From Bispira polyomma (taxonomy: Eukaryota): a DNA stretch of 64,000 nt. Position numbers and translations under genes: made by a program. The notes under the pieces are model-generated. The model made no database searches. It saw only the letters and a program-made list of their open reading frames with translations, and was not told the origin of the DNA. This document shows positions 5,158 through 62,328 of the stretch, piece by piece; within the stretch, counting starts at the first letter, position 1, and every line of letters begins with the position of its first letter. The DNA lies in contig OZ287753.1 of assembly GCA_965649765.1 (NCBI GenBank), positions 49,662,001 through 49,726,000 on the forward strand. Reading direction: 5' to 3'.

Positions 5158-5158
5158 C

Positions 5159-7182: not shown

Positions 7183-7289
7183 TGTAGTAGTAAAGTAAGA
7201 CAAAAACCATACTGTATGTCTGTCATACAGTATTTTTGAAAGTGTCAATGTTAATATACAAACCTGAAAAATCAGTGTTTTCTCTACAC

Positions 7290-15308: not shown

Positions 15309-15317
15309 CTATAAAAA

Positions 15318-18062
15318 TTAAATGTGTGTGTTTAAATTAAAGTAATCAATGGGTATAGGTTTCCACCTGAAATTAACTAGCAATGACTGGATTATTAGTC
15401 TATTGGGAGGTTTGTCAGAATAAATTCTTGAAAGATGATCAGCAATTATATTCTTTTTTCCCGGTATATGCTTAATGTCTAACTTAATATCATATGTGGC
15501 TGTAATCAGCCAAATATTTCTTATACATAATGCTAAGAAAGGATCTTTGGTTTTCTGTGAACCGACAACTAGAACTACGGCCATGTTATCACAATTGATA
15601 CTAACTGCTTGGTGCTCCCATACCTTTGCCCACACACGCAATGCTACTATTATATTTAACATTTCCAGATGTACAATCGAAAGTTCTTGGTCAAAAAGGT
15701 TATGAAATGGAGTGGCATATACTTCATTATTATAAATCGATGTTCTTATGATTAATGAAGGTAATACCATTAAATTTGTTCATAAATGAAATGAACCACT
15801 GCAGGTCATCTTTCATGTACTGAGTGACCTTGAAACGCTTACTATTGTGGTTATTCCTAAAAGCTGCTAATAATATGTTAATAAAAGAGCGTGCTGGGAT
15901 GACACATTTGTGGACGTAAAGTAATTTGCCCAGCAATGATTGAAATTTTGCTTTGCCTATGTACTTTTTGTTAATCGCGTCAACGCAGGCGTCATGTACT
16001 TCTCTTAATTTTTTCCGGCTGTATACTTATAGTACCTTTATCTAGGTCAAAATCGATTCCCAAACAGGTGAGCTTCCTGCAAGGTGAAGTGAGTTTTTCT
16101 GCGTTCATGGGTAAACCAAGTTTTGTTAACAGTGTGTGAAGTGTTTTAAAACCTTCTTCAGCATCACGTTTGCGAATTACGCCCACGTAATCGTCTATGT
16201 AGCCAAATACTTGTATCCTAATGTGTTCATGTGTGACGTAATGGCGTCAGTGCAACGCTAAAATGCTGCACTGCCGTGTACCCACCCGAACGCAATAGCC
16301 GGGTCTATGTAGTACTTATTTTCCCAGAATATTCCTAACTTAATTACGTCGACTGGGTCGACTCTCAAATTGCAGAACGCGCGCGCAACGTCAATTTTGA
16401 ACAACATTACGTCTTTTGTGCTGCGAATTGCTTCAGTGACATTATCAATAGTAGGAAATTTTAGCACAAACGCGACGTTATCAAATTCTTCCCTATTCAC
16501 ATTGTCATTCAATGACGCCCCATATGGGTGTGAAAGGTTAAGTATCACATGACGTTTGTTACCATCCTTGGGTCTAGTCAGTAGAGGAGAGCAGTTGTAG
16601 TCAATTGTGTCAATTTCTTTATTTGGACCTAGCATGGCACCTCATTGTTGTTCTTTGCTTAAATATTCTCCCACCTCATAGGGAAATTGAAGGGCAGAAA
16701 AGTGTTTTTTTATGTCCTTGTTTCTAATGCTGTCTGGATCCCTCAGACATAGTGGGAAGCCAAATTTGATGTAATGTATGAGGAGTTCATCTGAATATTC
16801 CCTTAACATGCCTTCCCAGGCATCAATGTGTAAATCTGAGCTAACAGGAATCCTTGCCTGTCGGTAATTGGGTACCCCTCTTTGATTATTTGGGCTACCT
16901 TTATAATTTTTGGAATTGTGTAAATTTTTTCCCCCCATCTGTCAGGGCCACAAAATGTGAACTTGGTAGGTTGCAAGGCCAGAAAACCTATTTCCTTACT
17001 GTTGTCATTAAAGTCAACTAAGCTTGTGCTAGGTGAGCCAGGCATATTGATCTCATCAATCAAACAATTTTTTGTAATTTTTGCAGAAGACGGACGGCGA
17101 GTGTATATTTTTTTGCAATGTACTATACCTGTGTTGAGTCGGGCTTCTGTCCCTGCATCTGCCAGGTGCTGTCTCTTTACAGTTTTCACTATAGTTTTTA
17201 CATTGTCATTACTTGAAATATTTTCACAGTTACATATCAATGCATCAATTAATTGTTCCAACACTTCAGTGTGATTTTTACCAGACTGTTGTAAACTCTC
17301 GACATCTTTCTTATAGTTATCAGAACTAATTTTTGCCTGAATTTGTTCTGTTTGAGATCTGATCTCAATCTTATTCTGATATCTGTCTGTTATGAACAGA
17401 TCCTGCATCATTAATTTGTATGACCTCACTATCAACAATAAACCATCAGGTTTAAACTCAATTTTATCAAACATAGGGGCAGCAGTGACCATGCTCATTT
17501 TTATTTGATAAAAGCCCTTACTTAGGCCATTATGATCAGTTATATGCGCAATGGGATAATGTTCACCAGTCATAAAGTTCTCATATACCCAATTTGTTTC
17601 AGAAATAGTGGCCATTTGGCCCTTTTTGACTTCTATGTTATTTGATAATTCATCTTGCTTTAATAACTGGTCAGTGCTACCTCCAATAAAGTGCCCTCTA
17701 TCCATATCAGGATTGTATGCGCTTTTTGTTACCGTTGTATTGCTAGGGTTGTGCTTGTGAGGTATATTTCCTGCAAATCCCTGCCCTTCATCTCTCCTCG
17801 GGGAAGAGACAACCAACCTTTTGGTGTTGGTCATTTCTTCACCTAAACATTCTGGTTCTATAATGACAGAAGGCATATTATTTATACTGTTTGTAACATT
17901 TTTGCAAGTTTTTACATCATTCATTATGCACTCATTAAACTGATTACACTGTATGTCCACAATGTCCTCACCTAGTTCATTATTTACATTGACATTAACC
18001 ATACTTATAATGCGCTCAATATTACATAGCATCGTCTTTTTACCTAGTTGTCGGTATGTTAC
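15318..18062 (-). pseudogene. D1 pol: long N-terminal extension, reverse transcriptase and RNase H (frameshifted)
   Basis: [76 protein letters not shown]. Confidence 0.9.
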
Positions 18063-19444
18063 CTATTTAGTATTGTTGTTATTCTCAATCTTACTGGCGT
18101 TGGCTTTGAAACACTTAAACTCTGGGTGACTTGATTCCTTACCCAAAACTTTTCACAGTGCCAACAGTTATGTTTGTAAACCCCATGATCAGTTTTATAC
18201 GTACACTTCCCACTGTTAAAATGTTTGCAGATTGTCTTCCCCTCCCCTGTGGTGCTGTTATTAGTAGAATGGCCATTTCCCCCTGAATAGCTGTTTGCCA
18301 TAGCTAGCTGAGATGCATTGAGCCTATTAATGGCCCATTGCGTACTATCTGTCCAGGACAACCTACCCTCCTCTACTTCTTGCATGTTTAGCGCCCATGC
18401 GGCATGGACGACAGGCCAAGGTAGCGAGGCTGCATCTCGGAGGGCATGAACGAGTTGTTGTATTATGCCGCGCATTTCATTGACGTCGGTGACAAGAAGT
18501 GTGTTTGATAGTTGCCCTGCTGCCCATTGTGGCAGTGATAGGTCGTCGTAGACCGGATACTTATGTGTGGCTCCCCCGACCCAGCCCTCATTAGGCCATC
18601 TGCGTTTAGCGTCTGCTGTGGTGATATCAGTACTGTTGAACCTACCAAATTTAAGGCGCTTACCTTGTGTCAGTTCCCTTATGGCTGTCATTTCATACTG
18701 AGCTAGTTGGTGTGTAACTGCTGCCTGTACTGATGGCATGGTTCTCAGCGCGTCCAGGTTGGGCACAATGCCATCTCCAGCGAATTCCTGAGGGTTGACC
18801 TGAGTGTCAAGTGGCTGTGTCGCCGTGTTGACAAAATCCGTGTTTGGTAGTGGCTGTTGGGCGGTTGTGAAATTCGGTACAGGAAGCGAGTATGTAGGTA
18901 TGCTTGATCCCTGCGTGGTCAACAAGCCCTGTTGGTTGATCTGCGAAATGTGTGGCTGTGTCCCCGTGTTGACATGAGCCATGTTCAGTGGGTGTTGCTG
19001 ACCATTCGTGAAATTATGTACAGGGAGTGGGTTGATATTCCTGCTCAGCCCCTGCGTGGTGGACAGGCCCTGAGGTTGCACCGAAGTGTGCTGTTTGAAC
19101 GAGCCTTACTCGACTATATCCAATCTCTGTGATAACGCAGCATTGGAAGATTCAAGACGTCTTAATATATTTAACATTTTGTCTGAGGTGGCTCCTAACG
19201 CTGGGGGTGCTTCAGAACAAGGTGGTGGACTAGCAATGTTGCTGGCCAGAACGGGGACATTAGCGGGGTCAACTAGAGTGGCACTATTGTAATTGCCAAT
19301 GGCATCAGATAGAATACTTTGTAAATTGCGAGACAATGTGTTTACCTGTTGACCCCTGTCCCCCATTTTGCCTGTAGCTCTGCCCTGGCGTGTTGATTTC
19401 TTCAATTGTGTCGCTAACGGAGTTTTCTTTGATGCATTACCCAT
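18063..19444 (-). pseudogene. D1 gag-like ORF with C-terminal Cys/His zinc-finger cluster
   Basis: ORFs 19106..19459 and 18059..19081 are in one frame with a single stop between them. Motifs YDDLSLPQWAAGQL and CKHFNSGKC...HNCWHC...H....C. Confidence 0.85.
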
Positions 19445-19923
19445 TATAATAGACGACACAATTCACTATCTAGATCCCTTGCAAGCAATCAGTAACAAGT
19501 AATGCACACCAATAAAACGTAGAATTAAAATGTTAACTAAAAACTGATTGGTCAGTCTGTGGATGGACAGAAGAACTTGCTAAGCATAGGTGTGTGTGAT
19601 TCACACATTTAAGGTAGAAGTGCAACGTTTGCTATGAGGACTGAAGCATTAGTGCCCTAAAGTGTCTTTAGATACTTTAACCTCTGAAAGTGTCGCCACG
19701 AGGGAGATCATGGGCAATATAAAGACGTATGTTCTCACTGTAGTAGGATGTTCAACAAAGAGTTATCTCATTCAGCAGCTAAATGTGACAAAAATAGTGC
19801 AACTAGGCAGCAGGGGGCCAATAGCACGGAGTAGGACATATGTCAACAACTAACAGAAGGAACAATCAGAGAGTGTGGGTATTGTAGTAGTAATGTGTAT
19901 AAATGTAGTACTGAAGTAGACGT

Positions 19924-20178
19924 TGAGTTTGAATTGGGATATTTAACGTCCACTCTAGTACCTGTTTTAGGTTATATTGGGACGGGTAGTTAGAAACGCT
20001 GGATGAAATACTGCATACAGTTGATCAAGGTTCTGCACTGAAACCAGCGGCCCACAGTAAGCAACTACCACCTTTCCCACATGGGCGTCGACGGGATTCG
20101 AACTCACGCCGCCCAGAGGTGAGAGACCAGTGATTGTGAAGCACAATGCTTGCTAACCACTAGGCCATCGCGGCCCCC
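19924..20178 (-). mobile_element. tRNA-derived SINE, copy 2, inserted in D2 pol
   Basis: 14-bp target-site duplication ACTGAAGTAGACGT at 19910-19923 and 20179-20192. Confidence 0.93.
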
Positions 20179-23100
20179 ACTGAAGTAGACGTAATAGATA
20201 GAAATGATAATTCTAAAAATTTAACTAGTAATGTCATGTATGAGGACATAATAGACAGTGATAAATTAGACATTACAGAAAGTAAATTAAATAATTCTAA
20301 CTCAAAGGAAGTAGTGTTTAATGACTATAATGTCTCTGACAACACAGGTCAGCTAGTAGATAATGTACATGTCTATAATTACAATCAGATGAGTACTACA
20401 GATTGTCCACTCAGCACTGCACGTACTAACAATTCCAGGAATGGTCAGCCAGTAGTTCAAAAGTCATCCATGGAGGAGGCGTTTAATACAGACATACAAG
20501 TGTATTATAGCACTAAACTTTTTCTTGACTAAAACAATTCTTCCACTAACCATAACCAGGTAAACAATGGTGCAAATAGAGAATGTGTGGTAAATCTTGA
20601 CGTATACTATGTAAATAATGAAATGCAAGTTGATCTGGCAGATAGTAATAATAATATGTGTAGGAGATTGACATATACACCCACGGCTTCAGTCTGTAAT
20701 TGGTTAGCTGCAAGTAGCCAAGCAGTTCAAAACATGATATATTTGAAAATTCATATTTTTGTAGGTGACTCGGGTTTCTATTGTCAAGATTATTATTGGG
20801 CAAATAGCATTAATGTCTTTCAAAGAATAACTAAAACTCCCAATGAGTCGTTGAAAATTTTATATGTCATGGAAATGGTCGTTACCATTAACCCAGTACA
20901 GTGGGCATATCACCAATATACTGATATGCAAAAAGAGCAGTCTGAACTACCACATAATCAGTACAATAGAGACCTCAAGTGCATTAGCGTTCATGGTTGT
21001 GATTATACGCAACATATTGAGAGCTTTTTTGATAATTTAATTGAACATGATGGTGACATTGGTAGTGCCATTAATAATGCACCATGTATGAGGATAATGT
21101 TCTAACATATAATACTAACAATAACAACTTGACGTCCGTTCTTGTTTCACAAGAAAATGTTGTGGGATGGTTGGGCGACCAGACTCATAAGCCAATCATA
21201 AATCACTGTCAGTGTGTGTATGACAACACACTTAAGGCTAAGGTAAGTGATTCGTCTTCGAAAACACGGAAAACAGATGTCTATTGTGAATCAAAAACAG
21301 TCGGTTTCATTAGACTTTCCAACACGGATTATGAAGTCATAGGCCCAGATAGGGAACCTCTAGCCATCACCAGTGTTGACAGCATGCTTCACACTGCTGG
21401 AATAATTAGAGATACTGGGTTAGTCAATAATTATAGATCTGCTAGAATTCCATTGGAATATGGCCTTAATGTGGCAGCTTGGGAAGAACTCAGATAAGGT
21501 GCTGTGGCAATATATTAAATTTGGGTTCCCTCTATCATTAGATGACCCCAAGTTGCTTAATAATACCAACTCTGATAACCACCATTCTGCTATTTAATAC
21601 CCTTTAGAAGTGCTTCAATATCTTGAAAAGGAACAGTCTCAAGGAGCCATGTTGGGCCCAGTTAACATAATTAATGATACACATTTCCATTGTTCTCCGC
21701 TTTTAACCAGGCCAAACAACATTGATAAACATAGGGTGATTCAATCTCTCTCTTACCCACATAACTTGTCTGTTAACAGCCAAGTAGTTTGGGATACTTT
21801 TGATCATACAAAATTTATCTTAAGGTTCCCCACTATTGATCATATTACTAGTGAAATTAGAAACACTGACGACCCTTTAGTGTTTAAGACAGATGTGGCA
21901 TGAGCTTTCCGTAACCTCAGGGTTGATCCTGTTGATGCCATAAAACTGGGCATTAATTTGGGTGGCAACCACTACGTCGACGCTGCTGTGGTGTTCAGCT
22001 AGGCCCACGTCAGCGCGGTGTTTCAGCGTTGCTCGGATATTGCAGCCAACTAGATGAGGTCTCATGGGTTAACATTGTTCCGCTACATAGATGATTATGC
22101 CTATGTTTGCACTAGAAGTAGGGCAAATGAAGTTTGCACCCTCCTACATGAGATACTTGACAAATTAGGGCTTCCCACAAACAAAGACAAATCAGTTACT
22201 ACTGACACTTTCATGACTTTTCTAGGAATCGATATTGATATTGTTAAGGGTATCATAAGTATCAATCAAGATAAGATAGATCAGATCAATCAAGATCTAC
22301 AAAAAAATATCAAGTCATGGCTCTCACATATTAAATACCAAAGCATGTTTGAAAAATTAATATACATACACAAGTGCGTGAAGCCTCCAAGAGTAGTTGT
22401 CAAGAGATTATTGGCTGTCTTTAGAGACAACCCAGATGCCAAGAGATTCAAAATACCAAACAACATTAGGCAAGACATTACTTGGTTTATTTCATTCTTA
22501 CCACAGTTTAATCGCATGACTTACATTTCACCTACAAACATACCAAATATGCAAGAATTTTACTTGGATGCTTGCTGACAGGCTTCGGCGGCATCTGGAA
22601 TAAAGAAGTATATGCCACACTAATACATAATATTTATGGACGTACCCTCGCCATTACTCAATTTAAAATATTGAATATTATCATAGCCCTAAGGCTTTGT
22701 GGCAACGACTGGGCTCACCAGAGAGTCACAGTGAGATGTGACAATCTGGTAGTGATGTTAGTTGTTGACACAGGTAAGACAAAAGATTGCTTTTTAGCCA
22801 CATGCACAAGGAATATATGGTTACTAACATCCACTTTTGACATTACATTGCACATACAGCACATTAGGGGTAAACTAAATTCTAACGCAGATGCTGTATC
22901 TTGCATTTATTCAAGTAAGCCACCTAGTGGCCAAAAAATAGAAGAAACTTAGTTAATGTCAGTATAAACACATACCACTACATTTCTTCAACTTGAACTA
23001 TGATATGCAGATTCTTCCTCATCCACCTTACACCTGGGGTTGATTGCCATACAAAGAATCAACTCTGCACTGAGGCCATCCACTACTGGTGCCTACACAT

Positions 23101-23997
23101 CACAGTTCAAGAATTTTTATCCTTCCTCCATTAGTCAGGCATGCAGCAGTTCACAGTTACTTCAGTACTAGCGATTCTGGAGTACTTGGTACAAAACAAT
23201 ATTTCACCTAGGGTAGTTAACAACTACCTGGCTGCACTCAAATTTATGTTTGAAAATTATAATTAAGACATTCTTCCATTCAAACACAATTCAGTATCAT
23301 TGTTCTGTCATAGTCTTTCACTTTTTTCAAAATTTAAACCCCAAAAGTAGGGTTCTTTGACATCAACCTTCTCCAGGACATTTCAAAAACTTGTGCCATA
23401 TTAGATGACCCCGGGTTATTTAGGGCTTCTTTCTTAGATGCTTTCTTCGGGTTTCTAAGTATGTCGAATATCGTTCCTCATTCGAAAGCAAAATTTGACC
23501 ACTCAAAGCATTTCTTGCGTCAAGATGTAGTATTTGGCCCACCAGGGGCTCATTTAATACTTAAGTGGGAAAAGAATATGCAAAACCGCTTGGACAAACA
23601 TATCATTCATCTCCCTTCCTTGCAGGACAAACTGCTTTGCCCAGTAGCTGCTTTAATGGAATTATTGCAATCTAGACTACTTAAACCAACTCAATCTCTC
23701 TTTGCCTCAGTATCCGCTCTTCATTACCCTGTTGTAGATTTCCACATTAGATCTGCACTCAAATCAGTTCTCTAACACTTAGGGGTGGACCATAGTTTTC
23801 ATGGTTTCCACACATTCCGCAGATCTGGTGCCCCTCTAGCCTTTAATAATAATGTATCTCTGCAACAAATTGTGTCACATGGTCTGTGGCGCAGCTGAGC
23901 TGTCTGGGCTTATCTACAACATTCTTCCTCTCAAGCTTCTACAGTGCAACTTACATTTGCTTATATCATCCCCCTTCCTAGTAGCTTGGGTTTGGGG

Positions 23998-24617
23998 CAT
24001 ATTTAAAATCTCTACTAAGGTTTCAATTATAAACCTTTTATCATTTTATGTACATATCAAAGATACAAACTTGTACAGAATAAATTTTGCAAACATATCT
24101 TTTACTATCTTATCAAGGTCATAAGGTTAAGGCAGGAACCTTAACTGCCAGGCGATTAGGTGCCGTAGGACCCGGGTTCAAACTGTGGAGTAGTTTCATT
24201 AGAGATGGTAACATTATCCATTAAAGAACATTGACCTTTAGTATATATTACGTAATGATTAGATACTATGGCATACACAGGTATGCTCATATTCTCACCA
24301 ACTTCTAGTTCTTAAGGTTTTATTTTCTTAATTTTTTTACCTCTGTTTTTTTTTACCTCTTCATTTTATCTTGTCGTGGTGAACACCACTCTTTCTTTAT
24401 ATTTTTCTAGTTGTATTACAGGTACTTGTTTTACCATGATGTTTAACCAGGGCTATTCCCGTTCACGAGATGTTGCACATGCTATTATGGCCATATTTAA
24501 AATCTCTACTGAGGTTTCAATTTTAAATCTTTTATCATTATATGTATATATCAAAGATACTAACTCGTACAGAATAAATTCTGCACACCTATCTTTTACT
24601 GTCTTATCAAGGTCATA
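23998..24617 (+). repeat. Split direct repeat B1 (23998-24123) and B2 (24492-24617) of D2
   Basis: Two 126-bp copies (CATATTTAAAATCTCTACT…GTACAGAATAAA…TCAAGGTCATA) flank a spacer that carries part of the hairpin core. Confidence 0.85.
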
Positions 24618-24950
24618 TCACAATTTAATTCACCTTAACTTTACTTTTGGACTCTAGCTTCTATTAATGTGGAACTGATACTAGTACCATAGCGATTAAC
24701 GGTCAGAACTGTGAACTCCTCAGATTAACCGGTTAGATTTAAGTAGCATTACACTCTTAAGGTTTTTGGATCAAAGTTAAACATAAAAATATCAAAACAG
24801 CATGAGTTGAAACCAAAGATTTAAATTATAATTTATTAGTTCTACATATAAAAATTATGCTAGTTCTCATCTGTGCTATGTGTAAGCTACAAATATTTTT
24901 GAAAGACTGAAACAGTAAAAATTATACATTTTTGTATTAAATACACATAC

Positions 24951-33800: not shown

Positions 33801-36800
33801 TTACAGAGCATATATTAATAAATTATTTTGGTGATAATATCACAGATGCATCTAAACCTAATATCATGGTAATTATATATAAAAGGCTGTAGCATTTGAG
33901 ACAAAGCTATAAGCGACAACATATATTTATTAGAAATCTATTTTAGACTGATATATAACAAGGATTCATACCTCATACAAGGTAAAGCCGACCATTGCTG
34001 ATACAATACTACTATGTAGGAAAGACACCATATTTTTGCCATCTAAGTCACAGCTTCCAATCAGACCAATGCCGGTGTCAACCCAGTACAAAGTGTTGGT
34101 CCAATAATCAATGGTCACAAAGGCAGGTTTGATAAGACCGCTTGACACAATAGTGGTTCTATTTCCTCCATGTAAATTTGATCTTTCTATTTTGGGTTGG
34201 CTGCCATAATCTGTCCAGAAAAGTTGGCTAGAACATAAATAATTCCGCAAACACTGACATTTGGTACGTATTTCTAGTGCATGTACTAATGAATACCCAT
34301 TTACTTGTATATTTCACACCTAACATTGAAAAAAAAGTTTAAAAAGCCATAACTGGCAAGCTTGCGGTTATTTTCACTTTTTAACAATACCACAAGCAAC
34401 AAGAGTTTTGGAATGTTTGGTGTCAAACAAAGTCGTAAACAGTATGAAGTCCATGGAAGTTAAACTAGAAACAAGGCAATCAGATAATAGGAAGTTTTTC
34501 TGTTCATTGTGTTGCCAGACCTTTATTCTATTTTGCTATGGTCTTAAAAGGGGTGAGAGGTTAAATGTGGAATTTCAGGGGTTTTTGTATCACTATTACA
34601 AAAATCGGCCAGAAGGTAAGAGTACTAAATATGATCAGTAATATTCAATTAGGTGTACATAATAAGTAACTGTTCATACAATAAAGATTTTGAAGTATCT
34701 GATATAAAGTATCAGCATATAAATGTACAATCATATCAATGTTTAATCTCAAAATAAAATAATTTTTAAAAGACTGCTATATCTGTGGACTGATGAATTT
34801 ATTTTGTGTCTCAGTTAGAAAAGAATGACCACAGACTTATACTCCAGAGGTATTTTACTTGTCCATTTCACTGTTTAAATTTGTCATCAGTTGTCAGAAT
34901 AATAGACAGATTAGAAAAGCCTTGTGGAAGGCACAACTTGTCCCACATCAACTAAACACTATCAGTCACTGCAAGTGATAAAACAATGGCATGACAATTC
35001 TGACAAACCCTTTACTGTAAGGTATATGTGCACCACATTAATGTATGGGTTGACGACCAGACAGTTGACAACCTCTTAGCCAATAAGGCACCTAGAGGGG
35101 TCACATGCTAACCTCAGGGCCCCACATGTTTCCTTATGCTGGTCATTCTAATTCTAGAAATCAGAGAGGAACGGCTTTTAAATCTCTCACCTAATATATA
35201 TATCAAATATAAATCAAAACGGCGACCATATTGCAAAACGCAGAGGAAAATTATTTATGGAAATAAAAACTTGGATTTGAAGTGTTTTTAAATGAAAAGT
35301 TTTAGTTTTTACAGTGTTTTCACTTTTAAAGGACGAGTATACACCATATAGTGACTATAATATTTGAAAAAAAGCCCTTATAATGGGTAGAGGAAAAAAA
35401 TGTGTGCATGAGTCATTAGCAGACTGTTCTCGTTGTGCAACCAGGCATTCAAGGCCTGTAGGTATTAGATGTACTCGTCAAACCGCTGAAAGCTTTTCAC
35501 TGGATCCATTAGTGCTGGAGGCAGGTAGTCAGCCGATGCCAGAAAAGACCCACGTCTTCTCACCCAGAACGGACCACATGACAACGACAACTTTTATAAG
35601 GAGCTGTTTCAACGTCACCAGGACACGATGGACTCGTTAATGACCACAGTGAATAGGTTAGAGAAAGATATATTTCAGTAATAAAGCAAAATGATAACCA
35701 GTCCAACAGAATTGCCCAGTTAGAAGCCGCCTACGCATACTCAGAGCTGGAATCCAACTCACAAGCAACAACAGCAGCTGGAATGCAGCCAACTCCTGCT
35801 CCACACCGTACTGCCACACATGTTCAAATTCACTTGATACACAGCAAGGCGGTTTTTCTAACAGATTTGGGAAAGTGTCTTTCTTACCTACAACTCCAAC
35901 GGAGACACGTTTGAGGAACTTCGGCATGCCAGGGGTGTGTTACTTTTACCCACCCCTGGTCATGGATTCACAAGGCAGGGTTATAACCCAAACACCCCTA
36001 AGACACAGATCTCAGGACAGCAGCAGTTCACCCAGAGTGACTCGAGTACACCAACAGCGGATGTACTCAGACAGTCAAGTCTGATCGAGAACCAAGTCAA
36101 CCAGAGGCTGGCGCAGTATGAGGCGTGGGCGACGAGTGAACAGTTCATCGGTAAGCTTAACTTTAAAAAGAAGTCGGGCAGATACAATGAGGGCTGCCTG
36201 ACAGGTTTGCATAAGAAGCTCATAGCATACGGCGAGTTACCTGTGGCCCAGTTTGCCGCAGGGCAGGTACAAAACATTTTAGAAACTGGCAACCCTCTTG
36301 TAGCACAATCCATATTACGTCAGTTGTCATACACCTTAAAGGACGCCGCCAACATCTTATGGCCAGTGGCCAGGGGAGCTTACGCGCGTAATATGCACAA
36401 TATTGAAGAGGGTCGATTGGGCTAGGCAGAGGAAACCAGATGGAACATAAACCGCCTATCTTATTTGCAAGCTTTAATTTCACATGCAGCTCCAGGCGCT
36501 GCCTCAGAATCAACGTCACATAAGAATGAGGTTCCCTGCAAACACTTTCAAAGAAATTAATGTAACCACAAGACTGACCACAATAACGGATCCATGTTTT
36601 ACAAACACATTTGCACGCATTGCTATAGGACAACCAAGAAGGGTAACCCACATCCGGAATCACGTTGTTACAAGGTGCATGGCAAGCAGCAGCCACACAA
36701 TAGGGAGATGGACAGCACATGGGTACCACTTCTACAGGAAACGCCAGTATTTATGTATATAGTGATATAAACCATGGGTTTAAAGGTGTAGAGACAAACA

Positions 36801-39800
36801 TAAAGTGTAAAAATTATAGTTGTTTAGATGTAAGGAATGACAATGAACTAGAAATTAGTAATTTTAATGATAATGATAATATTATAGTGAAGGACGAGGC
36901 CAACATTATAAATGGGGGAATAGAAAAACTATTAAATGATAAACAATCTACTCATATTGACACTGAAACTGTAAATAATATTGGTACCATAACCCGTTAT
37001 AAATGTTCAAATGAGGGAATGCAGGAGAGCATTATAGCTAACCAAAGTCATGCATGTACTATAAACTTGGTATTTGACAATCATAATGTAGACATATATT
37101 TTTCTAAAAAAGGGGACATTCTGATTCTGATTTCTTCTATTACCTGGTATGTAAAACCATGATAAGTATTTCGGGAGTTTACTCTCTGCTGAATGATAAT
37201 AATAACATTCAGTGGTACAAGAGTAATCAGAAGTTGGACAACATTTGGCCCATACAACTTTTACATTCAACACAAATCCAGATACAAGATTTCCCACGTA
37301 AACAGGAAATGCAAAGACATAACAACACATACAAAACCAAACAAAAAACAAATACCAAAACACACTTTCGAGTTAAGTTAGGTACTACAAACTACTACAT
37401 TGGAATCATAGATAAGTTATGTCAACAAACAAACACAAAATGGAAATCATATGAGGAATACACACACAAACAAAAAGAAACATATGAAGAAAGCAATACA
37501 ATCATACAGTCACCAGACACACTGAAACAGGACATTATTGACTCACAAATCGAACAGTGTATCAATGACATTTCAGACTCAGATTTAAGACAGACAAAAC
37601 ACATAGATAACAGACAATATGGTTTCATACCCCTGACTGTCAGAGATACCACTTTTATTGGACCCGACAGACAGGCGGTAAACATAGATAGTTATGACAA
37701 ACTTATACACATAGCTGATATTATTAAGAAGACCGGACTTCAGAATTATCAATCGGCAAGGATTTCAATGAAGTCAAACTTAAACACGGATATGTGGAAG
37801 CATTATTTCGATTATTACGACAAATCACTTGTGACATATATTGAATTTGGCTTCCCAATATCATTTTACGACAGAGACAGGCTTAGTACACAGGTGATTA
37901 AGAATCACTACTCGGCCAAAGTATATCCAGACAAAATTGATAAATGTTATAAGAACGAAATCACTAAGGGTACAATTATTGGTCCTATAGGTGACGTCAT
38001 CCATGATGACTTTCATTGCTCCCCTTTACTGACTCGTCCTAAAGACAAGGATCAGAGAAGACTCATTTTGAACCTATCACATCATCAAGGGGCATCAGTT
38101 AATGACTGTTCTCCCAAAAATCAATATGACAATATTGACTTTATTTTGAAATTACCCACAATTGTCCAGATCACCACTAAGCTACTGACTTTAGGCGACA
38201 AAGTGACACTAGTGAAAGTGGACATAGCTCACGCATTCAGGAATATTCGAATGGATCCATATGACTGCCTTAAACTTGGATATTGCTGAAAGGACAGTAG
38301 ACATATCGATTTATGTTCGACTTTTGGCCTCACCCATGGCTCGGCGATATTTATGAAAATTTCGGACGCAGTTACTTACATCTTAAAGCAGAAAGGTTTC
38401 TGTATCCTGAATTAGATGATGTTGTTATCTGTGAGCACCAAGATAAAGTTGGTAAAACCGGGAAAACGTGTCACTTGCATGGGAATAATCATCGATATAG
38501 ATGAGCATACGGTCAGTATCGATAAAGAAAAATTATATTCAATTATAGATATGTACTTAGAATTCAAAACTCTTATAAAAGTTAGGAAAAATAAATATCA
38601 ATCCCTGCTTGTTAAACTCTTGCATGTGCACAGATGCATTAAACCAGCGTGTATATTTCTTAACAGAATGCTAACACTCCTGAGAAATTCGGTCAACAAC
38701 ACATTTATAAAACTGACTACTGATTTTCACAAAAACCTGCAATAGTTTATCAATTTTTTGGAACGGTTTAATAGCACAGCAAAGTTTCACTCTGAAATTA
38801 AAAATTATGATGCCCTCATACATGTTGACTTGTTTAACCGGAATTGGAGGGGTATACAATGATAGAGTTTTCAAAACACCTATTCTACCTTTTAAAACTG
38901 ATAATTTATCGATAGTACACTTCAAAATGCTAGGCCTAATTATAGCCCTTGAAACTCGTGGCAAAGATTTAACAAATAAGAAAATAGAAATTATGTCTGA
39001 CATTATAGCGTCGGTATCAGTGGTGCAGTCATCACGTACTAAAGACGGATACTTGGCCTTATGCCTTAGATATTTATGGCTCATTTGTGCCAACTTAAAC
39101 GTAGACTTAGGTATACAGCACATTAAGGGTAAAGACAATATTCTGGCAGACACACTTTCTAGATGGTATGACAAAGATAATTGTACAGTAGCAAGTAAAG
39201 AATTTATTTTGAACAACTTCATAATGAACCGGACCACATTAAACGTGTTTATAAGGGACAATACATTTTCATTTTTCAGATATGCCAGACACAATCAAAC
39301 CACTACTACGTCAGGCGACAGAAAGACTGACCAAATGTCACAGACCAAAAACCAAGACAACCTATGATAAACAGTTTAGGCTATACATTGCTTTTACCGT
39401 GTATTATGAAGTACCTCAACCATTCCACTCAACCATATAGAACAGCTTTTTTGGTGGCTTTCTTTGGCTTCCTCAGAATTTCAAACCTCACACCAACTTC
39501 AGGTCAATACTTTGTCCACATTAGACACTTGACTAGATCAGATATCATTATAGCACCACCTGCATTGCACCTAATCATAAAACTAATCTGAACAGAGTAA
39601 CACCAAACATCATACAGTTGCCACAATTACTAAACCCTTGGCTCTGCCCAGTGAAAGGAGTGACCTCGTTGTTTCAAAAATATCCCCTCCTCACAATGTA
39701 ACCTTTTTTAGCTAAACATAGGTCAAGGGGAAGATGCGTGATAGACGCCAAACTTAGAGAAATGTTGAAAAACAATGTTGATTTTAACAATCCTAACTAT

Positions 39801-45711: not shown

Positions 45712-47329
45712 TTTCTGCAATTTATGACTATTTATTGAAACAGTGTCAATAAAATTAAGAATAAGATCCTGCCACATTAGTAAAAAAGGCAGGTAAATGT
45801 TTATTGCCTGGAAACATGCCCACCAAAATAACTTCCTTGTAGTTTAAGTGTGTATTTGGCAGTGTGCCATGGGAATATTTTACTACATATGCAATGAAAT
45901 AGAAGAACTGATTTTACAGAGCTTTTTACAGATTCCGATTTGATCTGAAAGTAATGATTTAATTCAACGAGACCTTGTTTTATGAGCATGTACAGAATAT
46001 TCTGGCTAGACATTAAACTTAATTAGTTTAATTAGTTCACGCTACTCAAAATCAATAAAAACCTAAGACTTTTTGCAAGTACTCTGACACCACTTCTTGT
46101 AGTCACGCTTGGGACCATAATCAATACAAACATCATTGCACATATTGTTTTAAATTACTAAACAAGGAGAACAATCGTCCTGAGTTTTAGTGCTTAAAAG
46201 CCAATAGCTCAAAATCAAGCAGTTAAGAAGGAGTTAGACGACTAAGTTCAGGTAGTGCCAGTGTCAGTTTAAGTGATAAAAGTATATGAACATAAATGTA
46301 CATAAAAGTAATTTTTGAAAAATTTACAATGGTTTTAATAAAATGGTTTTAATAAAAGAATTTATAGATGTAAATGAGACTAAATGTGAACAAACTATAG
46401 ACTATACATAGAATGAGGTGAATCAGCATGAGGGCGATTATGATGCTAGTCTAGATAAGACTCACATGTATCTCAGGAACTGGCATCCAGGCAACGGATG
46501 GTTTACCACAATAATCTGATCAGTACAGAGCAGGGTATAAACAGCATAATTCATAACTTACACAAAAATTTGGTGCATTATAATTCAAAAATTTCACAAA
46601 ATGAGGGAAGGTAAGAAGGTACCTGTACACTTATTGTGGTGTTTGCAATATGGCTTGTAGAATGTCAGTTATAGACTTTTGTTTTATGAATAACTGGGGC
46701 AACCAATACCCGGTAGTATTTAATAATGTTTCAGATTTCAGACCCATTTCAGGGTTTTACTATGAAATATACAATGCTGCAATTGACACATAAACTCCTG
46801 TAGGAAAATTGCCCAGTTTTCCCGTTAACATATCTCATATTTTTGACACAAGAATCATTATTGACTACAAATTTTGCATGCTTATACAGCCCAAGATAAT
46901 CGCAGTAAAACGATAACGTTTGATATATGATTGTGATTATACTGCATACATGCATAACATCATTGACAATATTTTTGAGCAATATAGTATGGCTGTTAAT
47001 AATATTAAAGCAATTTCACTGGATACTTTAAATAAATGTAAAAACGTAGTACTCTACAAAGTGCGTCCATCACTACAACTGCTGCCAAAAACAAGCTGAC
47101 GGTTACAAACATGAACTGAAATTCTTCTCCTGAAAATTACAACATTAAGGTCTTTTCTGTCCAACATAAAACAGTAGGTTTCATTACAATTTCAAGCACA
47201 AAAATTTCAGTTCATCAAGCTTGAAGTCTGTCTCGATTAATAAACGCTTGGGAGAACATCACACATAATCACCTAGACTAATTAATTGGCCAGTACTTCA
47301 AATTTTGTTCCCACTTTTACTTCAGAATA

Positions 47330-48890
47330 CACATGTCTTAAACCAAACAAACATAGATAATCATCATTCTGCACTTCGGTAAACTGAAACAATTGACAAA
47401 TATCTCCAACGTGAGAAAGATAAGGCCGCTTTGTTAGGCCCAGTTTCTAACATACATAGTATACACAACCATTGGGAATACTGTTTTAGGAAAAAGTTCA
47501 AAACCTATGTTTTTAACCTGGCCTTCCCACTGTAGTTTCTCTCCTGTACACCCCACATCCTTCCTTAAGACTTTGCTATGCCCATGGATCACATGATTGG
47601 GTTACTGATTATGCAGTTGTGCTTCACAAGATGCCTAGCATCAATAAAGAGCATTAAAAATGCACAATAATAATACTTGTTCACCATTACTTACCAGACC
47701 CAAGTATACTACTGAGACGAGGGTCATACTAGTTTTGTGACTCCCACATGGTACCTCTATACATTATCATGTACTCAAATATTTTTATGGCACAGACATT
47801 GTCCTACAATTCTCAAATATTGATAACATAACTGACGTTATAAACATTACTGTAGACCCACTTCTATTAAAGGTCAACATAGTCAGTCTTCAGAACCCTT
47901 AGTATCGACCCAGTCAAATTCCGAATCCAATGGAATAATGAATACTACATGGAGGCGCAGTTGCGTTTTGCTGGGCGCAAGGATGCGCCCCTTCCAGCAC
48001 TGCTCTGATATTAAAGAAGATCACATGAGCAAACTTGGTTTTAAGTTACACTGCTACATAGATGATTAAGGAAGGTTTTAAAAAATGATATGAGCGTCTG
48101 AGTGACATAGATCTCCCCATGAACCCTAGCAAAATTTTCCTTCCTTCTACCAAGGTAACTTTCCAAAGCAAAGACGTTGACATCATTTCAGGTACCATAA
48201 GTATCACCAAAGAAAAAATACATTGAATACACTCACAATGCAATGAAGCATGTAGTAAAGCGTGGTCATTATGTACAAGGCTTCAATGAGTACTAGGGAA
48301 GCTATTTTATATTCATAAGTGTGTAACACCAACAATATGCTTCGTAAATATATTGTTAGCTGTAAATATATTGTTAGCTGTAAATATATTGTTAGCTGTC
48401 AGAGCTACTCCCAATGCCAAGAGGTTTAAGGTCACAAACAACATAAAATGGGACATTGACTGGCTAATCCAAGTCCAACATGGCAACACTTACTATAACC
48501 CCAAAAGCATTAAACCATATTGGGACAAGAAATATATCCAACTCCAGTAATCAAAATATAAGAACAAATCCTTATTTAACAATAATTTATCCTTTCCAAA
48601 CATCAGCATTGTTGTTGTTCTGTCGTTGGATTCTATCTCCAATCCACCTCCACCTTCCATTATTGATTTCACTTTCTGCTCCACCATCCGTTCCTCACTC
48701 TAGTTAGGTTTGGTACATTTTAAAATCTTATATTTTCTAATATTTTAATATACTCTTACCTATAAACTTGTATATACCCAATAATATGTACAGAATAATA
48801 CTGCAAACCTAATCTTTTACTCTTCGAACTTATCCTGCTTTCATCTTTAGCTGACTGGGAACTGTTCCTAGCACAACCACTTCAGGGGCC
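47330..48890 (+). mobile_element. YR retrotransposon D4, heavily deleted remnant
   Basis: [44 protein letters not shown]; then the YR tail and a B-type 3' end (TGTACAGAATAA). Contains a short L2 3' insert at about 47480-47675. Confidence 0.75.
48345..48398 (+). repeat. 18-bp tandem triplication
   Basis: (TAAATATATTGTTAGCTG)x3 inside D4. Confidence 0.9.
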
Positions 48891-49029
48891 TGCTGTTTCA
48901 TTTCACAACCTCAAACACATCTAAAACTATTCTGGTTTCTCTTCTCTGTCCATCCTGCAAGAATATAATCCTGTAAGGATATAATGTACAAAGACAGCAT
49001 CTGTTTTGGAAGACAATTTGTAATCTACA

Positions 49030-49845
49030 CCATATGCAAATATTTCATTGGAAAATATGCTATTATATTCAGTTCCTTATATACTAGAAATTAGATTATT
49101 TTTAAATATCAATTCCTGTAAAAATATCTTCCACATAATTCATCTTTTTCCAAATTTATCATCTTGGGAATTTATTTTATATAATGATGTTAGTTACAAA
49201 TATTTTTTTTTATTTCTTTCTGCAAGCAATTCTAGTCTGAAGCTATTTAAAACATACTGCATTTCTCTTTATGGTAGTCAGTCCCCTGTAAGTAATAGTT
49301 TCAACCTGATTGTATATAAATATAAAATTAATAAATAAAATGTAAGTTACAACTTCTTTTGTCAATCAGTTAATCAAAAAAATATGTAACTTGTACAGTG
49401 AAAATTGTTTGACAACTTATGGTATCTTGAGTGACTGTATCCTATTAAGAGATACAAATAATAGATTTACAGGTAATGAGTTATATGACATTATTGAATA
49501 CGTTGGTACTAATTAAATTACATGTATCATTATATTTGATCACATGATCAAGATGTTTTAATTTAAAAAATGTTTTTTTTTTTGTTCTTTCTCAAAAAAT
49601 GTTCCCACAAATTGTGTACGATATTTTACGATAAATAAATAAATAAATATTTACTGCAAAACTTGTTTTTAAACAATGATATACATATCTTCTGGTAACC
49701 AATAAGTATTTTTTTACAGTATTAATCATTGTAAATCCATTTCAAGTCAAATTAAAATCCATTTTTTGATATTGTCCCACAACTGAACCACTTTTGTGCA
49801 ATTGCAAAATATATGTTCGAACTCCTAAATAAAAAAATAAAACTC
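49030..49845 (-). mobile_element. L1/Tx1 LINE C-terminal fragment with a nested CR1 3' end (+ strand, about 49230-49648)
   Basis: Minus strand 'FEHIFCNCTKVVQLWDNIKKWI'. Plus strand 'LKLFKTYCISLYGSQ' and an (AAAT)n tail. Confidence 0.65.
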
Positions 49846-52800
49846 CATTTGCACATCACGACCCAATAGGGGTCTGATAGTTCAGTTCCCAAAAACCCCC
49901 CTTCCTTATTTAACCCTACCTTAACTCCCTTTGGTTTCCTCTCCTTTCTTCTCTCTATCCTTTTGTGGCAACCAATTAGGGACCCTCCTTGCTTTTACTT
50001 ATTTCTCCCTGGGTGACTCCACCATATTGAATTAAGTCATTCAACAGTGAACATCAAGAAAATTTTAAATTCAGAAATACTTGGAAATACCTTTTAGTTT
50101 TTATTTGGAAGTGTTTTTATATTTTATAACCAGTGCATAGTGTTGTGAATATGGGGAGGACAAAGAAAACCCCTTTAAGTGTGCCACTCAAGGATAAGAA
50201 ACTGGCGCCTACCAAGAAACTAACAACAAAGGCAGGTACTTCTTCTCGTGTTAGGGACCCCAGAGCAATCCCATCCGACCGGCAATAGTCAAGCTAATCT
50301 TAGGGACGTTATGGCCGTGCTTCAGAGGTTGGAAACGGCTAACTCTGATATCAATGGACACCTCGAGAGGGTCAATTCGCATTTATGCAGTTATACCCCT
50401 GTAGGCTCAATTTCCAAAAGTTGATGTGCTGAGATCACTCCCAGAGGTGACTGCAGCCGTGAACCATCGTCTCGCTACATACGACGACCAACTGCGCACA
50501 GAATTTACTCAAGGTAAGCCACTACTGCGTCAAAAGTCAGGACGCTATAATACTACCGACATCGCCAATGCGGATTCACAACTCAGGTGGCCGAATGAGG
50601 GTTGTACTGGGGTATCTAGCAAAAAGAGACCCGCGTTTGACGACCTCACACTTCCTCAATGGGCGGCTGGCCAACTGTTTAATGTATCTCAAGTCCAGGA
50701 CCAAACTTTATTAAGACAAATGCTTGACCAGGTGATAAATTCGTTGAAGAACGCTTCCTCTCTCCCATGGCCAGCAGTCAGGGCAGCATGGGCTGCTAAT
50801 ATGCAGGAGGTGGAGGAGGGGCGCCTCCACTGGAGGGATGCTACTCAGTGGGCGTTGACGCGAATATGTGTTTCTCAACTGACAGTTTTGAACAGTCAGC
50901 AGCCAAGCATAGGAACGGCTATTCAGAAAGGCAAGCTATTGTGCAAATTTCATAACCTCGGCAAATGCAATCAAGAAGGGGACCACGGGCAGTACTGAAT
51001 ATTTACAGTATATTTGTTCTTACTGCCACAGAGTTCATAACACGGATGCTTCCCACCCGGCGGCTAAATGTGAGAATAATAACAACAAAAACAATCAGAA
51101 TTAAGGAAACAAAGCTTAGGGGTACAGTCAACAACTAACTGAACGAACAATTAGAAAGTGTGGGTGTTTTAGTAGCAGGGTAACTGATATGTCTTGTGTT
51201 TGTAGTAGTGTTAAATTTAATCAGCAAGAGACTAACATAACTTTATTGGATAATAGTGATAAAGGTTGGTTTGATAGTGGTAATATTCTAGGGAAATGTC
51301 AAATAGACAGTGTTTTAGAGCCCACATTGAATGAGGGCATTATTGACTGTAATCATGGAGAACATAATGACAGAGTAGTAATAGTAACTGCATGGTATAT
51401 TTTTTTTTCAAAAGATACTAATTCTGCAATAATGACTGATGTAAATAACATAGAATTTAGAGCTGTAGATATGGTGACAATGATATGGGCCATGATGGCT
51501 TAAGTTACTTGTCTACTGAACATACATGTAACTGGCCGAGTGAAGGCATTTATAATCCAAGTAACATTGTGCATTTAAATGTGCATGATTTGCCTATGGC
51601 TTCCGGTTTCTGATAAAAATTCTGATATGAATATGGCCATCACTATTTTAGTCCCTGCAGGCACATCCCTGAGGCCTACTTGGAAATCAAATCAACTGTA
51701 GAACTCATAGTTCATATTGACCCAACTCTTTGGGCTCAGAATCAGTATACTCTAGAGCAAAGGCAATATGCCAGCAATGTTTACTATTACTACAACAGAG
51801 ACCTGGAATGTCAAAATAACTATGGCTGTGATTATACACAGTATATTGAAAATCTAATTGATGACATTATTGATAAAGATGATTCCACTGGGTCTAATAA
51901 TAATGCACCCATGTTGGACATTGATGGTGAAACAGACAATGCTAGTATCACGTCCGTCCGTTCTTCTTCTAAACAAGCTGACCACGACAGCGAATACATT
52001 ACTACTTTAATTGAACACAACAAAAGGCATGGTTCCTCAACTAAAGATAAGCTCACTGATATTCAGCACAACTCAAAAGCCATTGCTTTATTAAGCTTTC
52101 AAATAAGGATTTTGAATTCATTGGCCCAGATAGGGAACCCCTTGCTATTACTACTGTAGATCAAATGCTAGAAATAGCTGAAATTATTAGAGACACAGGT
52201 GTGCCTAATTATAGGGCTGCTAGAATCCCCTTAAGTTATGGCCTCAACATTAAGGCTTGGGAAGATATACTTACAGGGCATCATGACAAAATCCTGCTCC
52301 AGTATCTTAAATTTGGATTCCCGTTGTCTCTTGAAAATCCTCAACTACTACATAACAATAACTTAAGCAATCATCACTCTGCTATGCAATACCCTCAGGA
52401 GGTGTGCAAATATCTAGAAAAGGAAAAGTCTAAGGGTGCCATTCTGGGCCCAGTTACACAGGTAATGGATAAACATTATCATGCTTCACCCCTGCTAACC
52501 AGACCAAAAGACATTGACAAGCGTAGAATCATTCTTAATTTGTCCTTTCCTTATGACCTCTCAGTCAATAGTCAGGTCCCCAGGGACACTTTTGACGGAA
52601 CTAAGTTTGCTCTCAGATTTCCTACGCTAGACAACATTACTGAGACAATTAGAAACACCAATAACCCAGTTATGTTTAAAACAGACGTTTCTAGGGCATT
52701 CAGGAATCTCAGGGTTGATCCCGTTGACGCCATCAAACTAAGCATAAAGTTGGACAATTGCTTTTACGTTGACGCTGCCGTTGCGTTTGTCTGGGTGCAC

Positions 52801-53768
52801 AGCAGCGCGGCGTTTCAGAGGTGTTTGGACATTGTGGCCAACTACATGAGGGCTCAGGGCTTTACTTTGTTCTGTTATATCGACGACTATGCCTGTATTT
52901 GCACTAAAGATAGGGCTAGCATAGGTTATAACCTTCTTCATGACATTCTTCTGAAGCTTGGTCTTCCCATCAACCAAGAAAAATCGGTCGTTCCCAGCAC
53001 TTTTACTACCTTTTAGGAATAGACATAGATATTAAGAAGGGCACAATCAGTATTAACCAAGACAAGATTAATTCAATTTATCAAGAACTTCAAGTTGTTA
53101 CTCAGAAATCTTGGTTATCCAGAACAAAATTTCAATCATTGCTTGGGAAACTCCTTTATGTGCATAAGTGTGTATGCCCTGCTAGAATTTTTATCAACAG
53201 ACTTTTAGCTGTCTTCAGAAATAACCCCCATGCCAAAAGATTTAAGGTTACACACAACATAAGACAAGATTTTGATTGGTTCTTATCTTTTCTTCCTTTA
53301 TATAACGGTATCACATATATTACACCCAAGGATATTGAACACATGCAAGAATTCCATTTAGATGCTTGCCTGATGGGACCCATAATTAAAGAGCTAGGTA
53401 ATTATCACTGGAGGCATATACCTGTGGAGTTCTTTAACTTAAATTATATTATATGATTACAGGTGCAGCCCCATCAACATTACCTCTGGTTCTGGCAGCA
53501 GTACAGCGACTAGATTCTGCTTTGAGGCCTTCTACAACCAGTGCATATAACTCACAATTCAAAACTTTCTTAGCATTTCTACAACAGGTCTCAGTACATT
53601 CTATTTTGGCATTTCTGGAGTACCTCACTCAGAACAATATCTCTCCTAGAGTAATTAACAACTATGTCACTGCTCTTAACTTCATGTTCTCTAAGTACAA
53701 TCTTAACACATAGGTTTTAACCCATAACTCTGTGTCCATGTTTCTGAGAAGCTTGGCACTCTCCTCTA
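49846..53768 (+). mobile_element. YR retrotransposon D5, 3'-truncated within YR
   Basis: Repeat A 49846-50072. gag from about 50152 (KSGRYN, FDDLTLPQWAAGQL, CKFHNLGKC). RT 52165..53016 ([28 protein letters not shown]). RNase H partly deleted; YR N-terminus 53463-53768. Confidence 0.92.
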
Positions 53769-55446: not shown

Positions 55447-55689
55447 TGGGATATTTAACGTCCACTCTAGTACCTGTTTTAGGTTATATTGGGATGGGTA
55501 GTTGGAAACACTGGAAGAAACAGTGCATACAGTTGATCAAGGTTCTGCACTGAAACCAGCGGCCCACAGTAAGGAACTACCACCTTTTCCACATAGGAAT
55601 TGACGGGATTCGAACCCAGGCCGCCCAGAGGTGAGAGACCAGTGATTGTGAAGCGCAATGCTTGCTAACCACTAGGCCACCGCGGCCCC
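55447..55689 (-). mobile_element. tRNA-derived SINE, copy 3
   Basis: 15-bp TSD TACTCTGGCATGAAT at 55432-55446 and 55690-55704; intact A/B boxes. Confidence 0.93.
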
Positions 55690-55763
55690 TACTCTGGCAT
55701 GAATGTCAGGGGTTACTAAAATGAAATCTAGCCTTGCCATTTTAACTGGTAAACTACAACTAA

Positions 55764-58540: not shown

Positions 58541-58611
58541 ATGGCGACCCGGGCCGCAGCAAGGTCAGTTCTCGGGTACCGGGCTAACTAATTTGCAGGC
58601 TGTTGCGGTAG

Positions 58612-62300: not shown

Positions 62301-62328
62301 ATTAAATATGGCATAGTATATATTGCAG

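Follow-up and report, generated by a model that had tools for sequence, protein, structure and literature searches.

In-frame gag-UAG-G-pol junctions and a predicted kilobase-range RNA helix in Ngaro-like retrotransposons of Bispira polyomma

Analysis of a 64,000-nt stretch of the Bispira polyomma genome (1.04 Gb in 75 contigs; contig OZ287753.1, positions 49,662,001 to 49,726,000), referred to below as the window, revealed retrotransposon copies (D1, D2, D4, D5 and D6) with a gag-like open reading frame (ORF), ORF1, and a pol frame, ORF2. The window-element ORFs matched the Pfam families RVT_1 and RVT_3 (reverse transcriptase [RT] together with RNase H, in ORF2). A tyrosine recombinase (YR) ORF lies downstream on the same strand and matched Phage_int_SAM_1 at E 1e-05 and Phage_integrase at E 0.001-0.01, matches that fall below the Pfam cut-off. 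An earlier note on the window had described gag and pol as lying in one frame on either side of a TAG-G in D1, D2 and D5, and had proposed stop-codon readthrough with help from a CAACTA motif of the CARYYA type. Direct inspection of the sequence located the three TAG-G sites, and CAA CTA at +13..+18 past each stop, exactly where the note had placed them. The distance from the T of the TAG to the next in-frame ATG was reproduced as 33 nt in D1, 72 nt in D5 and, after subtraction of a 269-nt short interspersed element (SINE) and one 14-nt target-site duplication, 135 nt in D2. The 1-nt frameshift in the zinc finger of D1 and the extra TAA of D5 (51102-51104, five codons before the TAG) were also found. 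In D5 the common frame holds for the late zinc finger and pol, and the TAG is off-frame with respect to the upstream gag ORF; a premature TGA (50996-50998) and a 1-nt shift, which were missing from the note, are present as well. D1, D2 and D5 are all decayed, and since their sites are homologous, they are not independent. TAGG-N11-CAACTA was not enriched genome-wide (1,362 matches versus 1,331 in the reversed control), and the question was therefore decided on the element family.

Conserved gag-UAG-G-pol junction in an Ngaro-like family

The elements are Ngaro-like tyrosine-recombinase retrotransposons, assigned by means of published definitions (PMC8547959, PMC3783388, PMC4157794). Split direct repeats in the order A1-ORFs-B1-A2-B2 were present in four of the six loci examined (L151, L154, L157 and L109); L061 showed the A pair alone within the stretch examined, and L165 showed no split repeats. 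The A and B repeat pairs of the four loci are 97-100% identical, which suggests that several families are young. A2 and B2 are separated there by a spacer of 0.7-0.9 kb. The pol frame ends 89-92 codons past the RNase H CDN motif, and no Dam methyltransferase match was obtained in three full pol ORFs. A DIRS1-like identity was tested by its inverted terminal repeats with an internal complementary region and its methyltransferase; this combination was not found, and the assignment was rejected. The label "DIRS" given in the earlier note is correct at the level of the order, while the elements themselves are Ngaro-like. No protease, integrase or env was found in the elements, and a protein search returned 227 homologues, which came with no genomic context. 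In L151, imperfect 93-nt tandem repeats (1929-2236) extend the N-terminal half of Gag (535 aa).

Four gag searches of the genome, each scoring the best 150 of 5,000-8,600 candidates, were used for sampling. Thirty automatic loci were taken per search, 80 more (four of them duplicates of automatic loci) were picked for full C-terminal coverage and subfamily spread, and 40 longer stretches were added later, 28 of which were loci fetched again. Of the 196 distinct loci in the first set, 139 carry a long zinc finger that is intact and 28 a short finger; the other 29 gave no match to the regular expression. The TAGG copies formed 31 clusters at 85% identity, with representatives that are 57% identical (median) over the last 200 nt of gag. 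For each of 30 clusters (23 main-clade and 7 D4-type), the copy with the longest ORF was chosen as the representative, with L080 standing in for the spacer-deleted L084.

Among the 139 long-finger loci, 129 stop within 22 codons past the zinc finger, and 124 of these 129 read TAGG, which argues against chance. An ORF of at least 300 codons past the stop was found in frame 0 in 63 loci, in frame +1 in 2 and in frame -1 in none, and in 17 copies the frame continues uninterrupted across RT and RNase H for 886-1,023 codons. The other 10 of the 139 loci comprise six scattered copies in which the TAG is replaced by a sense codon (TAT and TTG twice each, CAG and TGG once each) and gag-pol forms a single open frame, and four that are shifted or deleted. 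No sampled subfamily has lost the gag stop. The in-frame gag-UAG-G-pol arrangement is conserved in the family: frame 0 is kept over about 30 subfamilies, and pol has no conserved ATG. The Gag tail measures 12-18 codons, and the context AAA-TAG-GTA occurs in 7 of the 30 representatives. The gag stop is UAG in all 31 TAG-G clusters; pol itself mostly ends in TAA (22 of 26 representatives, with three TGA and one TAG), and UAG is therefore selected at the end of gag.

If Pol were translated separately, whether through an internal promoter, through reinitiation or through initiation at an internal site, the shared frame would be a relic. Several subfamilies have an ATG within 9-30 codons past the stop, and the retrotransposon Tca2 has a minor promoter at its junction (PMC2194720). 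However, in the 15 clusters whose ORF reaches at least 600 codons, the first pol Met lies anywhere from codon 15 to codon 268, its context is not shared among them, and the frame ahead of it is open. The 1,025 pre-Met codons contain no in-frame stop, whereas the two alternative frames hold 68 and 222 stops (the representatives had been chosen for long frame-0 ORFs). There is no stop-start overlap at the junction, and the last 1.1 kb of gag holds 12-28 ATGs (five loci), which argues against leaky scanning. Separate translation also leaves the invariant UAG and the fixed spacer unexplained, and we consider it quite improbable. Readthrough of the UAG, by comparison of these sequences, very probably yields Gag-Pol; on this level the proposal of the earlier note agrees with the frame 0, the lack of a conserved ATG and the UAG that is invariant across the copies.

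Two kinds of local signal were considered and rejected. Conserved local structure past the stop was not detected (mean z +0.27 and +0.55; z below -2 in 1 of 31), by a folding program that cannot model pseudoknots such as the compact one of murine leukaemia virus (MuLV); a local hairpin was rejected on these z values. A type I signal (UAG-CAR-YYA) does not fit because the base right after the stop (+1) is G throughout the 31 TAG-G clusters and the motif stands at +13..+18 and is variable. The features of type III readthrough, UAG-G and a predicted structure about 8 nt past the stop, are present.

Predicted pairing of the junction with the RNase H region

At +10..+18, codon positions 1 and 3 are conserved across the 31 clusters and position 2 is variable, the opposite of protein constraint; +14 is A in 13, G in 8, C in 8 and T in 2 clusters, and +17 is C in 19, T in 11 and G in 1. 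The CARYYA-type signal suggested by the earlier note is replaced by the pattern C-N-R C-N-A C-Y-A, whose variable bases change together with those of a distal partner strand in the RNase H region; CAACTA is therefore regarded as one strand of a long-range helix. That a displaced CARYYA motif alone, as a linear sequence, drives readthrough would agree with the presence of CAACTA at +13..+18 not only in D1, D2 and D5 but also in several subfamilies. It is nevertheless hardly credible, since +14 and +17 vary and their changes are matched on the distal strand, and since the motif of tobacco mosaic virus (TMV) works directly past the stop (PMC2194720).

The reverse complement of +10..+18 was found 2.1-2.7 kb downstream in 8 of the 20 sufficiently long representatives, and a 31-nt inverted repeat in L109 mapped the partner to the RNase H CDNxxVVxVV codons. 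The codon periodicity matches GTN valine codons, so that the variable proximal bases oppose wobble positions. The CDN motif was located in 92 of 108 long loci. Compared with about 174 windows, the CDN site was the best partner of +1..+40 in 73 of 83 long-finger loci, with a mean of -32.0 kcal/mol and a mean z of -5.0. In a sister clade with -1 frameshifting it was the best partner in 0 of 9 loci; near-identical copies are included in both counts.

The 23 main-clade clusters share one register (register 40), in which 76% of the pairs are Watson-Crick, compared with 43% in the next-best register. Watson-Crick pairs at +9, +11, +14, +17 and +19 occur in 21, 20, 22, 22 and 21 of the 23 clusters, whereas 11.0, 8.5, 7.9, 11.6 and 11.2 were expected after shuffling. 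All four pair types occur at +11 and +14 (at +14, A-U in 10, G-C in 8, U-A in 2 and C-G in 2). Cognate duplexes had a mean of -30.7 kcal/mol, compared with -20.9 kcal/mol for swapped arms, and the cognate mean was reached in 0 of 10,000 permutations. To allow for relatedness, scores were computed for each proximal column with all 1,725 nucleotide columns of the RT-RNase H alignment; the predicted partner column ranked first of 1,725 for seven of eight positions, the exception being +8 with rank eight. Parsimony on the RT tree gave 2, 5, 8, 4 and 3 changes of pair type at the five covarying positions, 22 in all. The helix starts 7-8 nt past the stop irrespective of the length of the Gag tail or of the arm-to-arm distance, which ranges from 1,935 to 2,796 nt. 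Minimum free energy (MFE) folds of whole 2.5- to 2.9-kb sequences hold the helix in 8 of 8 cases, window copy D1 included, and in 0 of 1 control. In the seven D4-type clusters the register is shifted by one, with a 1-nt bulge, and the helix is longer (+8..+31, down to -50 kcal/mol; L231-L250), which suggests that the pairing slid once in evolution. D5 has lost the distal arm; in its translation DACL joins the C-terminal residues directly, and no CDN was found, while its relatives L257 and L259 retain the helix partner. Given this covariation, the predicted long-range helix is very likely real.

A duplex at the stop could also recruit ADAR, which would edit UAG to UIG and remove the stop in the RNA. 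The UAG triplet is preferred by ADAR, and the amber/W site of hepatitis delta virus is a precedent for such editing. The stop is always UAG and is often paired with the continuation of the distal strand in duplex folds. However, the codons involved in this pairing are fixed by their amino acids (T-K/R, F/Y-L), its register is not unique, and it is also seen in the -1 clade. Reverse-copied edited RNA would give TGG, which was found in 1 of 139 loci, among seven assorted substitutions. Editing is thus an extremely unlikely source of Pol.

Predicted splice signals, sister clade and window features

The YR frame has no conserved ATG. A predicted splice donor AG/GTAAG (the slash marks the splice point) was found at gag Q-G-K, in phase 1, in 33 of the 33 representatives in which the site was located, and the Gly codon of Q-G-K is GGT in 169 of 171 loci, compared with 36% overall. 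At the predicted acceptor past the pol stop (TTNYAG), TT stands at -5/-6 in 24 of 24. The conserved phase-1 donor and the acceptor suggest a spliced RNA that joins the N terminus of Gag to the ATG-less YR. The predicted intron of about 3.3 kb holds both helix arms, the distal arm lying about 250 nt upstream of the acceptor. A donor at the start of gag (ATG G/GT) was rejected because its Gly codon varies, and a -1 slippery site at the pol-YR overlap was rejected as unconserved.

In the short-finger clade (D6; L172-L200, L262-L270), A_AAA_AAC precedes the gag stop in 23 of 28 loci (by eye), a CCACTGC/GCAGTGG hairpin is conserved, and pol is in frame -1 in 13 of 13 long ORFs. This anatomy is that of a classic predicted -1 frameshift. 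The same splice donor was found in the four loci of this clade where it was located (4/4), acceptor-like sites are also present, and the CDN arm had no partner at any consistent place in six loci.

These splice signals bear on two further explanations. Pol might be made from an alternatively spliced RNA in which the stop is skipped, with the 3' splice site at TAG/G or at an AG at +18/19. TAG/G fits the acceptor consensus YAG/G, and in 17 of the 30 representatives the AG at +18/19 shares the phase of the gag donor. The phase of TAG/G is nevertheless wrong for a phase-1 donor; TT at -5/-6 is found there in 0 of 30, compared with 24 of 24 at the predicted acceptor past the pol stop, and in 21 of 30 it is preceded by a second AG no more than 15 nt away. 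Thirteen of 30 representatives lack the AG at +18/19; where it occurs, TT is always missing at -5/-6, and the G of this AG is among the bases that covary with the distal arm. Skipping of the stop by splicing is accordingly a very remote explanation.

The main alternative accepts readthrough of UAG-G and assigns the helix to another task, namely tuning of the Gag-YR splice, packaging or reverse transcription. Both arms lie between the conserved donor and the acceptor past the pol stop, so that looping or masking of splice sites is conceivable, and the in-phase AG at +18/19 falls inside the helix in 17 of 30 representatives. On the other hand, the proximal arm keeps a constant position relative to the stop, whereas a variable 585-621 nt separates it from the donor. 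A splicing role is weakened further because the -1 clade has the donor and acceptor-like sites and yet no junction helix (0/9). A splicing or packaging role of the helix is therefore judged unlikely. Contigs from three sequencing runs of unspecified kind, all from one study, showed a joint neither at the UAG nor at the predicted splice; the result is neutral.

Table 1. Features of the element copies in the window (positions in the window)
Feature	Position	Strand	Remark
D1 gag-like ORF1	18063..19444	-	one internal stop, 1-nt shift in zinc finger
D1 gag stop TAG	18063..18065	-	context AAA-TAG-GTA; pol in same frame
D1 proximal arm, +8..+20 past stop	18043..18055	-	12 Watson-Crick pairs and 1 G-U; in 2.6-kb MFE fold
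D1 distal arm	15561..15573	-	within RNase H CDNMAVVLVVGS codons, 2.47 kb downstream
D1 pol (spacer, RT, RNase H)	15318..18062	-	419 codons open directly past stop, then broken
D1 predicted splice donor AG/GTAAG	18658..18663	-	gag Q-G-K, phase 1
D1 predicted splice acceptor	15309..15315	-	just past pol stop, into YR frame
D2 gag stop TAG-G	19832..19834	+	gag reduced to zinc-finger end
D2 proximal arm, +7..+21	19841..19855	+	15 contiguous Watson-Crick pairs
D2 distal arm	22756..22770	+	RNase H, CDNLVVMLVVDT codons
SINE-like insertion in D2 pol	19910..20192		with 14-nt target-site duplication
D4 gag stop TAG-G	36701..36703	+	fourth case, missing from the earlier note; 1 nt off zinc-finger frame in this copy
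D4 distal arm region	39006..39030	+	decayed; duplex -21.9 kcal/mol
D5 gag stop TAG-G	51117..51119	+	read from sequence
D5 proximal arm, +9..+20	51128..51139	+	partner absent in D5
D5 RNase H internal deletion	53360..53390	+	CDN region and distal arm gone
D6 junction (sister clade, control)	59799..59835	+	A_AAA_AAC, TAA, local hairpin; pol in -1 frame
D1 predicted intron	18663 to 15309		
D4 predicted intron	36151 to 39279		
D5 predicted intron	50514 to 53462		
D6 predicted intron	59225 to 62328		

Other features were noted in the window. A 252-nt SINE-like repeat occurs three times (19930-20181, within the pol of D2, 55442-55693 and 6932-7183). Fragments resembling ORFs of long interspersed elements (RT or endonuclease, by eye) lie at 1496-2959, 11488-12930, 54351-54901 and 57944-58564. 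A short frame with YWTD-like repeats (33969-34313, minus strand, by eye) suggests a host exon like that of a low-density lipoprotein receptor, and the elements may thus sit in host introns.

Proposed mechanism and comparison with known systems

The predicted helix of +8..+20 with the RNase H region 1.9-2.8 kb downstream probably stimulates readthrough of UAG-G. Most ribosomes would halt at the UAG and release Gag. With the UAG in the A site, the helix would stand at the mRNA entry channel and would raise misreading of the UAG to a few percent, so that these ribosomes read on into Pol; the rate of misreading would set the ratio of Gag to Gag-Pol. Since both arms lie within the predicted Gag-YR intron, Pol would come solely from RNA that is unspliced and whose RNase H region is intact. 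The role of stimulator is suggested because the 7- to 8-nt spacer and the UAG-G match known readthrough systems: readthrough stems start 7-12 nt past the stop, with the pseudoknot of MuLV at 8 nt, UAG-G marks a readthrough class, and AAA-UAG-GUA is the luteovirid context (PMC3159437). [quoted passage not shown] We infer as likely that the helix forms in cells, that it is placed at the entry channel and that it causes misreading of a few percent.

Several observations weigh against a helix that stimulates readthrough. Covariation demonstrates pairing and not the function of the pairing, and because both arms lie in the predicted intron, a role of the helix in splicing is conceivable. The own distal arm ranked first among 30 in 14 of the 30 representatives (9 of 23 in the main clade), as related arms cross-pair, and the fold windows end near both arms, which biases the folds toward the helix. 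L095, L106 and L162 pair weakly or not in register, and L162 has no distal arm; in the otherwise open L084 the spacer has lost 9 nt. The stop of one D4-type subfamily is TAG-T (L248, L249), and the 29 of 196 loci whose zinc finger is not intact were unscored. A junction of similar look in Tca2 gave no readthrough in yeast and has a minor promoter (PMC2194720). In five of six more distant relatives with TGA at the junction, the CDN helix was not seen, so that readthrough in Ngaro elements may not need the helix everywhere.

These relatives came from 17 metagenome loci, of which 10 were inspected. In six of the ten, a single TGA stands between the end of gag and an in-frame pol (L273, L274, L277, L278, L279 and L281; 27-40% identity in RT-RNase H), in five of them as TGA-C; in the remaining four the junction is absent or broken. 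In L281 alone the best long-range partner lies in the RNase H region (-42 kcal/mol, first of 85), in a single GC-rich sequence. A metagenome scan with the gag alignment and a viral-contig scan with the pol alignment gave no matches. In-frame stops seem to be widespread in Ngaro elements, and the helix so far seems limited to the clade described here. A further ORF past the recombinase of L277 (3438-5091) may correspond to the SGNH-hydrolase ORF4 known from some Ngaro elements.

A more far-reaching interpretation is that folding of the 3' end of pol over 2-3 kb onto the gag stop is a prerequisite for Pol, the helix being both stimulator and integrity sensor. We offer it tentatively, as somewhat less probable than its converse. 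If it were true, spliced RNAs and copies with a deleted RNase H region, like D5, would yield no Pol, and a ribosome that passes the UAG would melt the distal arm and damp further readthrough. The Ngaro elements of one genome would, if the predictions are true, use three devices: long-range readthrough of UAG, -1 frameshifting in the sister clade and splicing for the recombinase. A reporter built on CAACTA, as proposed in the earlier note, could read falsely negative because the distal arm is left out of it; short junction reporters of this kind could give false negatives in general, which may bear on the negative result with Tca2.

In the full-text literature searched, no Ngaro readthrough and no long-range readthrough helix in retroelements were found, although the in-frame stop itself may be in print; the excerpts of PMC6681497, PMC12440569, PMC7192593, PMC9210276 and PMC5009743 hold no statement on either subject. 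Kilobase-range readthrough stimulators have been described for plant RNA viruses, and none was found for a retroelement or an animal nuclear transcript in the literature searched. Expression of Pol in tyrosine-recombinase retrotransposons is unaddressed in the literature examined; the helix offers a precise, testable mechanism that is backed by about 22 natural compensatory changes.

Comparison with described Ngaro elements (PMC8547959, PMC3783388, PMC4157794, PMC9210276) revealed a shared zinc-finger gag-like ORF1, RT/RNase H without a methyltransferase, a downstream YR and split direct repeats A1-ORFs-B1-A2-B2, here with the long A2-B2 spacer given above. The ORFs of Xenopus Ngaro are described as overlapping, whereas gag and pol form one frame across the UAG here. 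The excerpts of these sources speak neither of readthrough nor of a long-range helix. Tca2 and SIRE1, both long-terminal-repeat elements, share the in-frame stop between retrotransposon ORFs (PMC2194720). Tca2 has UGA and a local predicted pseudoknot, and its bypass mechanism is unresolved; the excerpt of that source mentions no long-range arm. MuLV shares gag-UAG-G-pol with a structure 8 nt past the stop (PMC3159437, PMC9553062), but there the structure is a compact local pseudoknot, while the partner strand lies kilobases away in the Bispira elements.

Plant viruses offer further likenesses. Readthrough of the tombusvirus RNA-dependent RNA polymerase (carnation Italian ringspot virus; PMC3234231) shares pairing on the kilobase scale, about 3.5 kb there, and a proposed quality control that acts against truncated genomes. 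Its distal arm lies in the 3' untranslated region and pairs with the bulge of a large local stem-loop, whereas no conserved local structure was detected in the Bispira family. Coat protein readthrough in PLRV and other luteovirids (proximal and distal readthrough elements, PRTE/DRTE; PMC9553062, PMC3159437) shares UAG-G, often as AAA-UAG-GUA, and a simple helix of a stop-proximal arm with a distal arm inside the read-through coding region. The PLRV loop measures about 670 nt and readthrough extends the capsid protein, whereas the Bispira helix would span 1.9-2.8 kb, with a predicted function in the synthesis of a retrotransposon Gag-Pol and a distal arm placed on conserved RNase H codons.

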